IMG/VR virus record: IMGVR_UViG_2522572021_000013
DNA from: a virus
Taxonomy: Duplodnaviria > Heunggongvirae > Uroviricota > Caudoviricetes
Reading direction: 5' to 3' (one strand)
DNA: 39,698 nt
This document shows positions 33,001 to 39,000 of this stretch, piece after piece (the stretch's first letter is position 1; each line of letters starts with the position of its first letter). Position numbers: made by a program.

Positions 33001-36000
33001 CAGATAACATTCCGACCACCCCCTGATTCAGGTTATAAATGACACAATATCTTGACAACATCCGTCACTGTCTGTCAGAAAATGTACTGCCAAATATAAG
33101 TATCATGTGAAGTACATCTACCCGTTTTAGCCAGCGTCCTTCAGAGTGGGCGCTGGCTTTTTTTATTATGCTGCGGGTGCATTTATCTCCAGCACCAGAC
33201 TTTCTATCTCAACGCCATATGCTGCATTTTTTGTAACATCCGTCAGCGTCAGCGCATTCAGCCCCAGTGTCAGACTGTCTTTTATGACCTGGAATGCCGG
33301 GCCAGCCACTCCATTCAGTTTCGGAGTAACCGTGGCACTGCCGGCGGTGAACACCAGCTCCAGCGTCTGCCAGTCGTTACCGTAATCGCCGAACTCCCCC
33401 AGCTTCGTGTTTCCGGCTTTCCTGTGATGCATCAGATTCACTCTGCCGTCAGTGGTCTGAGTGAAGTACGACATCAGGAACGGATTACCGGTACCTGTCA
33501 TCGCCACACCATCAGGAACGGGAGCATCCGTATACAGATAAATCCCCAGCCCGAACTGATGGTTGGTCAGTGCGCCTGACAGGCGGAACTTACAGGTCAG
33601 TCTGCCGCCCTGTGTCAGCAGGGTAATTGCGTCATCCACCGGATGCGTCAGGGACCAGGATTTATTGCTCTGCTTGGCGATCTTAAATACACCACCCGAC
33701 AACTGAATTCCGCCATCCTTAATGCTCCAGCCCTGCGCAGCAGCCTCTCCGGCTGCCGGCAGCAGGGAGATTGTGCGAACGGACGTATCTGCAGACGGAC
33801 CCGATGGCGTGTTGCCGCCGGGCGAGGGTTTGATTTCCGGTGCCTTACCACTGATGAAGGCTGAGGTGCGCCCGGCTGCGTTCAGAATAGCGGTTGCCAG
33901 ACGATCCGGAATAATGCTCCTGCGCGCCCATGAACTGAAATGTGTCGGGCGGTTTGATGATACCTGGTTTCCATTCGTTCTCGATGCCGCACCGTAATAT
34001 CCTGATGCCGGAATATCCGGATCTTCTGCCGGCGCGTTAGTGGCGGTATTGACGCCGTTACCGTCTGTCATGAAGGGCACAAAATAAACGCCCTCACTCT
34101 CCCTGTTTTTATACCCGCCGTACACGGTGTCGTACTGGGTAGCGTATGTATTTTTCCAGTAATACGTCGTGTCACCACAAATCCACGGCACATCTGCAGC
34201 ACTGCCACCATGGCACTGCGCGTTAAACACGGAGAGGTCAGCACGAAACTGTGTCAGCATGGCTGTAAACAGCGCAGGTTGCTGTGCGTGGGTGGCGGCG
34301 CTCATGTCAAACTCACCCTGCATCCAGCAGACGGCCAGCAGAACGTTTTTGGGATTTTTCTGCAATGCCGCTTTTGTGCGGGAAATCAGATCCTGATATA
34401 ACGGCTTGCCCCCGTTACTTTATTCGTACCCCTTATAATGGGGTGTTAGCCAGCCAGACCCGGCATGATTACTGCCCCCAGTCGTCCATGATCCGGGGGG
34501 TGATGTCACCGGGTCTGGTGGGGCGCTGGTAACCGCTAATAGGGGTCAGGTCAGGCACTTTTGCCGGGACCGTCTGTAACGTGGATGCCGGTACCTGCTC
34601 CCCGTGGTTATCTGGTTAACCCATATACAAGGGAGACAGAATGACCGAATCCAGCGATTACGAATCCGTCCAGGTCTTTATCGGCGTTGATGTCGGTAAA
34701 GATACGCATCACGCTGTAGCCATTAATCGTTCAGGTAAACGCCTGTTCGATAAAGCATTACCAACGACGAAAACAAACTCAGGTCGCTAATATCTGACCT
34801 GAAACAACATGGTCAGATACTGCTGGTTGTTGATCAGCCAGCTACCATCGGTGCGTTACCTGTCGCCGTTGCCCGCTCAGAAGGAGTCCTTGTCGGATAC
34901 CTCCCTGGACTGGCCATGCGCCGCATAGCCGACTTACACGCCGGTGAAGCTAAAACTGATGCTCGTGACGCTGCCATCATTGCCGAAGCTGCCCGTACCC
35001 TGCCTCACGCGCTACGCACGCTGAAACTGGCTGACGAGCAAATCGCCGAACTCTCCATGCTCTGCGGCTTCGATGATGATCTTGCCGCACAGACAACGCA
35101 GGCCAGCAACCGTATCCGCGGCCTTCTGACCCAGATACATCCGGCACTGGAGCGCGTTCTCGGTCCGAGACTTGATCACCCGGCGGTACTCGATCTTCTC
35201 CAGCGATATCCCTCACCAGAAAAACTCGCTTCGCTGGGTGAGAAGAAGCTGGCAGCCCAGCTCTGCAAACTTGCGCCTCGTCTGGGTAAACGCCTTGCAG
35301 CAGACATAGCTCAGGCACTGGCCGAACAAACCGTCGTCGTTCCCGGCACGAATGCCGCTGCCGTAGTACTGCCACGTCTGGCACTCCAGCTCATCACGCT
35401 GCGTAAGCAAAGAGACGAGGTGGCGCTTGAGGTAGAACAGCGAGTTCTTGCTCACCCTCTTTACCCGGTCCTGACCAGTATGCCCGGAGTCGGTGTCAGG
35501 ACCGCAGCCAGACTCCTCACCGAGGTCGCCTGCCGCGCCTTCGCCTCTGCCGCACATCTCGCTGCTTATGCTGGCCTTGCGCCGGTAACTCGGCGATCCG
35601 GCTCGTCAATACGCGGTGAGCATCCCTCGCGACGGGGTAATAAAGCTCTCAAACGGGCGTTGTTCCTGTCGGCCTTCGCCGCGCTCAGGGATCCGCTCTC
35701 CAGGGCTTACTACACCCGCAAAATGAGTCAGGGAAAACGACACAATCAGGCGCTTATCGCCCTGGCGAGACGACGCTGCGACGTTCTGTTCGCCATGATG
35801 CGCGACGGGACTTTTTATACCCCGCAGGCGTCATAACATGCTTGACAACTTAATAGGGGCACCCCCCAGCGTGCCGAATCCTGACTGGCCCCCGTGGACT
35901 CGCTGAATGTCCCCTCCGCGCCCTGGGTAAATGCCGAACCACCACGACAGCATGGTACCAGCAGGATCCCCGCGTTATTCGGGATATACGGGAGCAGTTT

Positions 36001-39000
36001 TTTGGCAATATGTAAACCCTGGCCGACACAGCCGTACTGCCCTTTGCTCAGGTCAGCCCTCGGATGATTCAGCGTACTCATATCCTGCACATCATGCAGA
36101 CAGTGGTCAGCCGGAATAATATCGTTATATCTGCAGGCAGCCCCGCCCGGCGTCACTGTACTGCGGCGCGCCAGCTGTTTAATGCGCGGATCCGGAGCAT
36201 CGTATGAATCCGGCAGCGGAAGCCCTTCACCGTAAGCCATGGCATTGGACTGCCCGGCCAGTACGATGACGTAGTACCAATCCGGCTCAGATGAAGGGCC
36301 GACCTGTGGCTCTCCTTCAATAGCCACCGCCTGCATCAGTGTGTACGGCGTAATGGCAACCGGTCCGCCGTATGGCTGCCAGCCCTCTTTCAGTTTGTGT
36401 GTCAGCTTTTCCGCAAGGTCTGACGGCGACGCCGCCCTGACAACATCATAATGTTTAATCGACATCGAATTTCTCCCGTGTAGAGGAACAGAGTTAAAAA
36501 GCCGGAATCAAATCGCAGGATGAACATCTGCCAGTGGCTGGTCGTAAAAAAAAGGCCGCGCCATGCGCAGCCGGAAATAAAGGGATAACGATGATAGTTT
36601 GAGAAAAACAGAAATAACACTTTTGTGGCAAAGCATGGTGCCGGGTGCCTCCCGGTGAATTCAGCCGGTGTCACTGAACCCGCGTCGGCTTGCCTATAAC
36701 ATAATAAATGCTACCCACACCAGTCGCCCCTCCGCACAGGGGGATTCACCATGCAGAAGTGTTTTTAATAAACAGCAAACAAAAAAATCAAGCATTATGC
36801 AGGCTGTTTCTTTTTATCACCGGCCACAGCAATACCACAATGCCGCAGACCAGCACCCCATCCGCCAGCACCGACATGATTCTGCTGGTGAAATCCACCA
36901 TCACCACCAGAAACAGCAGGAGTGCAGCCACAGCCAGGCGCAGTTTTACCGTCACAGGTGATTCTCCAGACGAAGACCCAGAACACCGGCAATCTCTTCC
37001 AGCACCTTACACTCTTCCGGCTCAATTTCGCCTTCGGCCTCCGCAATGGCCACCGCCACATCCAGCACATCTTCCGCTTCACGCGTATCGTGTTTCACAT
37101 CCTCGATCTCACGTAACGCCGCACGACGACCAATTTTAAAGTTCGTATCCAGCTGACCGATAATGGTTGCGCTCATCGCATTAATTTCTGACGTAAACGC
37201 GGACAGCGCTGGCTGATTACGCAGTACCTGTTCGATCTTCGCTTTCTAGGAAGCCTCACATTCACCATCTGCACAGGCCACCAGGTATGCGGCGTTAATC
37301 ACCGCCTGTGCCAGATCGCGTTTTTCAAACTTTTTAATTTCCACTGCCGCTCGGCGGGCTTTTTTACCAAAAATACCAAACATCGTGACGTTCCTTTGGG
37401 TGGGTGAGCCAACGCCCGGGAGCGATCTGCCCACAGAGAAAGTCACACTGACCACTCCGTAAGCTCACCCCCGAAAGGCTCTGTGGTTGATATGCGCCGG
37501 GCGTGGCGCGGATACAAAAAAGGCCGCCAATAGCGACCTCAGTTACGGGATTATTCTGGGGTTAAACGACTGTTACTCCCCCCAGACAAAATCATCACTT
37601 CCTGTTCGATGCGAGCCATAGTGAACCTCGTACTTATCTCCCATCTTTCTTGCTTCCGTTTCTGCGTCTTCCTCTGTCGCAAAAACCCCAACAAGATGCC
37701 AGGGCGAGCTTCTTACCACAACCCAACCTTTAACCCATCCTTTGTTGTCCTTATCTTCCATTAACACTTCAGAAACAAACTGAACCGCCCCGGGAATCCT
37801 GGAGACTAAACTTCCTGAGAAAGAGGTAAACAGGATGACTAAAAATACTCGTTTTTCCCCTGAAGTCCGTCAACGGGCAGTCCGTATGGTTCTGGAAAGT
37901 CAGGGCGAATATGACTCACAATGGGCGACAATTTGTTCCATTGCTCCAAAGATTGGCTGTACGCCGGAGACTCTGCGTGTCTGGGTTCGCCAGCATGAGC
38001 GGGATACCGGGGGCGGTGATGGAGGGCTCACCACCGCTGAACGTCAGCGTCTGAAAGAGCTGGAGCGTGAAAATCGTGAACTGCGCCGCAGTAACGATAT
38101 CCTTCGCCAGGCTTCCGCTTATTTTGCGAAGGCGGAGTTCGACCGCCTCTGGAAAAAATGATGCCACTGCTGGATAAGCTGCGTGAGCAGTACGGGGTCG
38201 GACCGCTATGCAGCGAACTGCATATTGCCCCGTCAACGTATTACCACTGTCAGCAACAGCGACATCATCCGGATAAACGCAGTGCCCGTGCGCAGCGCGA
38301 TGACTGGCTGAAGAAAGAGATACAGCGCGTATACGATGAAAATCACAAGGTATACGGTGTGCGTAAAGTCTGGCGTCAGTTGTTACGGGAAGGTATCAGA
38401 GTGGCCAGATGCACTGTGGCACGTCTCATGGCGGTTATGGGACTTGCCGGTGTTCTCCGGGGTAAAAAGGTCCGTACGACCATCAGCCGGAAAGCCGTTG
38501 CCGCAGGCGACCGCGTAAACCGTCAGTTCGTGGCAGAACGACCTGACCAGCTGTGGGTGGCTGATTTTACTTACGTCAGCACATGGCAGGGCTTCGTCTA
38601 TGTGGCGTTCATCATTGATGTGTTTGCCGGATACATTGTGGGGTGGCGGGTCTCATCGTCCATGGAGACGACATTCGTGCTGGATGCACTGGAGCAGGCG
38701 TTATGGGCCCGTCGACCGTCCGGCACGGTCCATCACAGTGATAAAGGTTCTCAGTATGTATCGCTGGCCTACACACAGCGGCTTAAGGAAGCCGGATTAC
38801 TGGCATCAACAGGAAGTACAGGCGACTCGTATGACAACGCGATGGCGGAGAGCATCAATGGTCTTTACAAAGCGGAGGTAATACACCGTAAGAGCTGGAA
38901 AAACCGTGCAGAAGTGGAACTGGCCACACTCACGTGGGTGGACTGGTATAACAATCGACGATTGCTGGAAAGGCTGGGCCATACTCCTCCGGCAGAAGCA

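Follow-up and report, generated by a model that had tools for sequence, protein, structure and literature searches.

We analysed a DNA stretch of 39,698 nucleotides (IMG/VR virus record IMGVR_UViG_2522572021_000013; hereafter the window), which is 100% identical to Escherichia coli O145:H28 strain RM12581 (NZ_CP007136.1, 2741833-2781530) and to RM13514, the clinical outbreak partner of RM12581; both strains come from one 2010 lettuce-outbreak clone. The window contains a lambdoid prophage between btsS and yohO/yehW, at what we call the yehV locus, and a nanS-p type esterase gene of this prophage is split by a copy of ISEc20, an insertion sequence (IS) of the IS110 family whose own transposase gene is one base short. 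Site-specific insertion of ISEc20, followed later by the one-base loss in its transposase gene, is very probably the correct account of the locus as a whole.

ISEc20 within a nanS-p type esterase gene

The esterase gene lies on the minus strand (36465..33166), directly upstream of the gene for holin (32666-32872), and the lysis and structural genes are located downstream. Its 616 codons specify a protein of DUF1737-SASA-DUF6645 architecture, and the break point is codon 202, within the catalytic SASA domain. The N-terminal fragment (35861..36465, minus strand) runs from codon 1 through codon 201 to the second base of codon 202, covering DUF1737 and the first part of SASA including the GQSN serine motif, and the C-terminal fragment (33166..34411, minus strand) carries the remaining SASA, the linker and DUF6645 up to the stop codon at 33166-33168. 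Joining 33166-34411 to 35861-36465 restored a 1851-nt open reading frame (ORF), the 616-aa product of which is identical to the intact SASA-family esterase WP_106873535.1 from the orthologous locus of O145 strain RM9872. Both fragments aligned to this one contiguous homologue with 100% nucleotide identity (0 substitutions in 1851 nt), confirming the original prediction of a single esterase gene split by an insertion. In the reconstructed 616-aa protein, DUF1737 spans residues 4-49, SASA 66-262 and DUF6645 467-577. Full-length tblastn alignments gave 99% identity to the esterase of phage 434, ∼96% to 'yjhS' of Stx1a phages and 52-53% amino-acid identity to NanS-p of Stx2a phages (VT2-Sakai and others). 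The succession of DUF1737, SASA and a C-terminal region, the place in the late region and the homology to Stx-phage esterases also bear out the predicted NanS-p type. RefSeq annotates both pieces as pseudogenes (33166-34410, 'DUF6645 domain-containing protein, missing N-terminus'; 35860-36465, 'DUF1737 domain-containing protein, missing C-terminus'). Loss of activity is expected from a split within SASA, and this copy of the esterase is presumably inactive.

The inserted element occupies 34412..35860 (plus strand) and measures 1449 bp here, as compared with 1450 bp when intact. Over these 1449 nt, it is 99.7-100% identical to loci annotated by RefSeq as 'IS110-like element ISEc20 family transposase', and the name ISEc20 rests on this annotation of near-identical loci; the window copy itself is annotated as 'IS110-like element ISEc20 family transposase, frameshifted' (34641-35836). 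Such copies occur in ∼1120 of the 5426 complete E. coli genomes, ATCC 25922, Nissle and an isolate named ST-131 among them. A literature search on 'ISEc20' found no functional study.

In O157:H7 strain SS52 and in O145 strain RM9872, the empty site reads ...AACGGCTTGCCCACCCCCCAGCG... (in a longer stretch, ...ATATAACGGCTTGCCCACCCCCCAGCGTGCC...). The left junction in the window is ...GGCTTGCCC/CCGTTACTTT and the right junction ...AATAGGGGC/ACCCCCCAGCG, where the slash marks the boundary of the element or, in a target, the point of insertion. When aligned to RM9872, the two flanks overlap at a single C, giving boundaries of 34412-35860 or, equally, 34411-35859. Beyond this single common C, comparison with the empty site revealed no target duplication. 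Similarly, there were no terminal inverted repeats, the termini agreeing at 7 of 20 positions, which is about chance level. The intact target, TTGCCC/ACCCCCCAG (in other written extents CCCACCCCCC and GGCTTGCCCACCCCCCAGCG), is divided into a left half, CCC (34409..34411, plus strand), and a right half, ACCCCCC (35861..35867, plus strand). The original prediction, in which the esterase frame was lost at about 35860 and regained at about 34407 around an IS110-family DEDD element of roughly 1.45 kb, was thus right to within 4-5 bases. Element ends taken from BLAST extents (34406/35869) were rejected: other insertion sites have target-like bases that make the element seem longer, an effect that alignment to the intact gene corrects. 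We also did not adopt a 2-nt core (CC, GC or CA), since each would need a mismatch between donor and target and only one C is unambiguously shared.

The ISEc20 transposase gene (34641..35836, plus strand) is a pseudogene in this copy. One C is missing, reducing CCC to CC at 34761-34762 (ATTACCCAACG in intact copies, ATTACCAACG in the window), with a frame shift at codon 42 and a premature stop at 34788-34790. What is left at the N-terminus is an ORF of 49 codons (34641-34790), made up of 41 native and 8 out-of-frame residues before the stop, and the rest of the gene continues in another frame to 35836, just as had been noticed from the sequence at the outset. Inserting a C yields a 398-aa protein identical to WP_001358663.1, which matches the Pfam families DEDD_Tnp_IS110 (PF01548, E 6.9e-49, residues 14-168; N-terminal, RuvC-like) and Transposase_20 (PF02371, E 7.3e-22, residues 277-358; C-terminal, serine) as well as, with 239 bits (cutoff 140), NCBIfam NF033542, 'IS110 family RNA-guided transposase'. 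Nothing but the missing C distinguishes the interior of this copy from intact ones in strain 16003 (same site) and strain 2014C-3061 (an rtcB site), and the same holds when the intact copies in fetched loci L002, L003 and L096 are taken for comparison.

Among the 1116 genomes with this ISEc20 segment, the CC allele occurs only in RM12581 and RM13514, and it was found in 0 of 47 other copies from fetched genome and metagenome loci. Several points weigh against a genuine lesion and would fit a sequencing or assembly artefact in these two assemblies, with the transposase in reality intact. The two alleles differ by 1 base in the length of a homopolymer, ∼8 near-identical copies of the element are present, the allele is confined to two assemblies from one laboratory, and an independent O145 assembly, FWSEC0002, has CCC at the same locus. 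Moreover, the RM12581 and RM13514 assemblies were built from 454 Titanium, Illumina and PacBio circular consensus sequencing (CCS) data (158 contigs), and their repeats were closed by dupFinisher and manual in-silico work; a one-base error is possible for a multicopy IS in a 454-based assembly closed in this way. However, a run of only 3 bases is short, the assemblies also drew on Illumina and PacBio CCS data, and two separately sequenced isolates gave the same result. The same assemblies further share a private nonsense substitution in the terB-family gene nearby (37248), a change that is not of the kind produced by homopolymer errors. On balance, we consider an artefact unlikely and prefer a genuine loss of the base.

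Age and origin of the insertion

The exact nanS-p::ISEc20 junction was detected in 20 of the 5426 complete genomes, all of which are listed as O145 or share the O145 allele. In most of these carriers, the interrupted allele resides in another prophage, at ∼846 kb next to ybhC. The yehV-locus insertion is present in three genomes, namely RM12581, RM13514 and FWSEC0002. The two loci were told apart with a 1-kb probe over paralogue-specific single-nucleotide differences and the junction, which matched at 100% only in these three genomes and at 99.2-99.4% in the other 17 carriers. FWSEC0002 is a Canadian O145:NM assembly that was deposited independently. Its yehV locus holds the same prophage, the IS occupies the same position in it, and both the transposase gene and the terB-family gene are intact. 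Across 28395-39698 (11.3 kb), it differs from the window at 4 positions (33070, 33093, 34760, which is the missing C, and 37248, the terB nonsense change), and its IS at this locus is identical to that of the window but for the one missing base. RM9872 carries the same prophage with an uninterrupted esterase gene; the insertion is polymorphic within serotype O145:H28.

The nesting of a frameshift in an IS and of the IS in a gene had originally been taken as the sign of an old, fixed insertion. An ancient insertion followed by slow decay of the IS would superficially agree with this nested inactivation, and the surrounding prophage is clearly degraded. However, the esterase fragments show 0 substitutions relative to the intact orthologous allele, a single base separates the IS from intact copies, the prophage is found in RM9872 without the insertion, FWSEC0002 lacks the frameshift and has an intact transposase, and only 3 of 5426 genomes carry the insertion. 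An ancient origin is hardly credible in view of these data, and the idea of an old and fixed insertion had to be abandoned. Since the flanks are free of substitutions, the IS is one base off, and the RM9872 gene and the FWSEC0002 transposase are intact, both lesions appear to be recent: judging from these alignments, the yehV-locus insertion is real, lineage-specific and recent, and the frameshift is younger still.

RM12581 and RM13514 each carry nanS-p::ISEc20 twice, with an identical junction and an intact transposase in the ∼846-kb copy. In RM12581, this second copy (fetched locus L091, 10825-14125) is located in a heavily rearranged prophage, which also holds three annotated IS3-family elements and split lysozyme fragments. 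We tentatively consider that the two identical junctions in one genome may stem from independent insertions, guided by a bridge RNA to the same 10-nt site in paralogous prophage genes. Alternatively, homologous recombination or gene conversion might have copied the interrupted allele from the ∼846-kb prophage into the yehV prophage, with no new transposition. The occurrence of the same junction in a second prophage of the same genome speaks for such copying and against a separate insertion, and the 17 other O145 genomes have the 846-kb-type allele only, that copy probably being the older one. Furthermore, the paralogues are identical over ∼0.7 kb to the left and ∼0.6 kb to the right of the IS, which is ample homology, and paralogue-specific differences start only outside 33698-36447. 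However, three positions within this shared tract (34063, 34182 and 35464) distinguish the ∼846-kb copy of RM12581 from the window. The window agrees with the intact RM9872 allele at the two flank positions, 34063 and 34182, and with the ISEc20 copy of strain 16003 at all three, including 35464. A site-specific element would also be expected to strike the same 10-nt target in a paralogue and to produce an identical junction, and ISEc20 matches at 5 to 9 places per record among O145 genomes, a varying number that suggests recent activity. The three differences mildly favour transposition, or else a conversion predating those changes. Weighing both sides, we regard transposition into the yehV prophage as probable and conversion as a possibility of rather low standing, with the remainder undecided.

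Target motif and predicted bridge RNA

The 85 loci fetched from genome and metagenome collections provided 38 unique left and 25 unique right flanks of ISEc20. Left flanks conserve CCC only and right flanks conserve C-A-C-C-C-C-C-C, resulting in a natural target logo of CCC/CACCCCCC with an information content of 0.8-2.0 bits at 11 positions. The esterase site, TTGCCC/ACCCCCC, is a full match to this logo, and the insertion may have occurred in the esterase because the gene contains the preferred target CCC/ACCCCCC.

The transposase gene is flanked by a left non-coding end of 229 nt (34412..34640, plus strand), which we predict to be the bridge RNA gene, and a right non-coding end of 24 nt (35837..35860, plus strand). 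In the predicted RNA, a 5′ hairpin (34429-34445, plus strand), identified by folding, is followed by a target-binding module and a donor-binding module. According to the published pairing rules, the left target guide (LTG) and the left donor guide (LDG) have the top-strand sense of the left target and the left donor, respectively (PMC11208160). The predicted LTG (34472..34478, plus strand) is a C-run, CUGCCCC, in the same sense as the left target ...TGCCC. The predicted right target guide (RTG), GGGGGGUG (34495..34502, plus strand), is the reverse complement of the right flank CACCCCCC, an 8-mer match that 4% of shuffles reached. For the donor, the predicted LDG, UAAUAGGGGU (34537..34546, plus strand), has the sense of the IS right terminus TAATAGGGGC with 9 matches and a G·U, a 9-mer reached by 0.3% of shuffles, and the predicted right donor guide (RDG), GUAACGUGG (34576..34584, plus strand), is complementary (6+2), but for one bulge or mismatch, to the left terminus of the IS, C-CCGTTAC. 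The order LTG-RTG-LDG-RDG is canonical, and all four match lengths were reached in 0 of 5000 shuffles of the left end, with the LDG and RTG matches carrying most of the weight. The fold of the left end has a z-score of -2.7, and when the guides are held unpaired, the RNA forms the 5′ hairpin and two modules of stem, internal loop and hairpin, with the guides on opposite sides of the loops. The ISSfl4/ISEc20 cluster is listed with entries LE and IS110 in supplementary file 8 of Durrant 2024 (PMC11208160).

Some observations count against this assignment. The LTG is the weakest of the guides, as its 5-mer match is not significant alone and only the last 3 left-flank positions are conserved across the 38 sites. 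In addition, the minimum-energy fold of the free RNA pairs the LTG with the RTG, which follows from the C-rich target. No Rfam bridge-RNA family was found in 32500-37500 at E≤1, the only matches being STnc100 and a chance-level asX2, and the covariation set consists of just two decayed relatives with one apparent compensatory pair detected by eye. We nevertheless infer that ISEc20 is guided to its targets by an RNA from its own left end.

The two decayed relatives, found in E. coli (L093 401-1826 and L094 2501-3505), are ∼87% identical to ISEc20 and are frameshifted or truncated by ISL3/IS3 elements. Their predicted guides differ slightly, with ACTGCC changed to ACTTCC or AATTCC and an RTG without the U, and the one usable left flank (L094, ...AACTCC) fits the altered guide. 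Among the 25 unique right flanks of ISEc20 itself, five (L005, L006, L012, L030 and L084) start with C-ACGTTAC(C), which is perfectly complementary to the predicted donor guide GUAACGUG (window 34576-34583) rather than to the target guide. In IS-free E. coli (L097 1-771), the two flanks of the ibsA-mdtA site (L006 and L012) are ∼570 bp apart, which indicates that the IS at this site is associated with an adjacent deletion ending at a donor-like half site inside mdtA. This pattern resembles the 'half-match' recombination reported for IS621 (bioRxiv 10.64898/2026.08.31.748434).

Within the right end, TTGACA at 35842-35847 is a candidate -35 box, and TACTTT (34416-34421) comes to lie at 17-bp spacing from it only in the circular right end-left end (RE-LE) junction, where the two hexamers could form a junction promoter. 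We rejected the idea of an outward hybrid promoter that would read out of the right end into the fragment of the esterase, as the hexamer 17 bp after TTGACA in the integrated element is CCCAGC.

We propose the following course of events. The ISEc20 recombinase (DEDD/serine), guided by the bridge RNA from its own left end, would have inserted the element at the preferred 10-nt target CCC/ACCCCCC in codon 202 of the esterase SASA domain, in the nleA prophage in yehV/mlrA of an O145:H28 sub-lineage. With recombination at one shared C, no duplication would have arisen and the gene would have been divided into two pseudogene pieces. The 2010 lettuce-outbreak clone (RM12581/RM13514) would later have lost one C from the CCC run at codon 42 of the transposase gene, and with it the element's own recombinase. 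The left end and both termini of the window copy show no difference from the intact copies compared. Because the bridge-RNA region and the termini match in this way, a copy that cannot make recombinase could yet be mobilised in trans by an intact ISEc20 in the same genome (at least one is annotated), for example that at ∼846 kb.

Prophage setting and relation to known systems

The prophage contains nleA and a full set of structural and lysis genes; stx is absent and the early region is missing. At 37781-39531, an IS3-family element (37781-39090), of which the genome has identical copies elsewhere, lies directly against a truncated gene for a transcriptional regulator that, from its position, is probably mlrA/yehV. 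Genes for Q, replication, immunity and integrase are absent on this side of the prophage. The IS3-family element next to the regulator fragment, together with the absence of these genes, points to an IS-mediated deletion of the early region, which is common to RM9872 and FWSEC0002. The further prophage decay originally proposed is real in this respect, but the nested insertion and frameshift in the esterase region are not evidence of it.

Other lesions were also observed. The gpJ gene (9064-12542) is frameshifted at 11669, where one T outside a homopolymer is missing relative to RM9872, and the portal gene (21357-23941) is annotated as frameshifted in both the window and RM9872. The tail region is ∼1.2% divergent from RM9872, which suggests recombination. 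These other frameshifts were uninformative as a gauge of assembly error, since the gpJ change at 11669 is not of the homopolymer type and the tail region is itself ∼1.2% removed from RM9872. In the terB-family gene (36952-37383, minus strand), only RM12581 and RM13514 have the nonsense substitution at 37248 (A in the window where RM9872 and FWSEC0002 have C), which represents a second very recent inactivation ≤2.5 kb from the IS. The sRNA family STnc100 (Rfam RF02076) has a strong match on the minus strand at 36597-36783 (115 bits, E 1e-25), a short distance upstream of the esterase gene.

The feature as such is ordinary, a known IS in a known type of gene that RefSeq has already annotated. 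Its general biological weight is limited: one of several redundant prophage sialate esterase copies was removed in an outbreak clone, and the genome gained an extra IS copy without its own recombinase. The yehV-prophage insertion and the one-base deletion can serve as lineage markers within O145:H28, and with its hundreds of natural insertion sites ISEc20 could offer a handy natural system for testing the rules by which IS110 bridge RNAs select targets. Should the insertions in the paralogues prove independent, ISEc20 would provide a natural set of data on the off-target rules that bridge recombinases follow.

Compared with ISEc20/ISSfl4 (IS110 family, IS110 group), the window copy shows 99.9% nucleotide identity across the element to copies in >1100 E. 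coli genomes. It shares the long left end, the short right end, the lack of inverted repeats and duplication and, once repaired, the transposase WP_001358663.1, and it departs from them in being one C short at 34761-34762, with the transposase truncated after 41 native residues. The esterase, in turn, resembles the NanS-p prophage sialate O-acetylesterases found in Shiga toxin-producing E. coli (for example in 933W/Sakai Stx2a phages; PMC10462455) in its DUF1737-SASA-C-terminal-region architecture, its late-region position just upstream of holin gene S and its full-length homology to Stx-phage esterases. IS insertions within nanS-p have already been described, but for the IS3 and IS66 families (PMC10462455), whereas the window gene is interrupted by an IS110-family element. 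It also differs in its 52-53% amino-acid identity to Stx2a-phage NanS-p, being the phage 434/Stx1a-phage variant (99% and 96%), and in belonging to a prophage without stx.

The closest functional parallel is IS621 (PMC11208160; PMC11208158), which has the same protein domains and whose left end encodes a non-coding RNA with a 5′ hairpin followed by target- and donor-binding modules, as predicted here for ISEc20. The sense and antisense guide rules (LTG and LDG in top-strand sense, RTG and RDG as complement) and the discontinuous RDG pairing are likewise as for IS621, and so, by analogy, is the -35 box in the right end with a promoter possible only in the circular junction (PMC11208160). In contrast to the REP element targeted by IS621, the ISEc20 target is the C-rich CCC/ACCCCCC inside genes. 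The proportions on the target side are reversed, with a predicted RTG of 8 nt and a conserved left target of 3 nt in ISEc20 as against an LTG of 9 nt and an RTG of 4 nt in IS621. Finally, donor and target unambiguously share only one C in ISEc20, whereas the shared core of IS621 is a CT dinucleotide.

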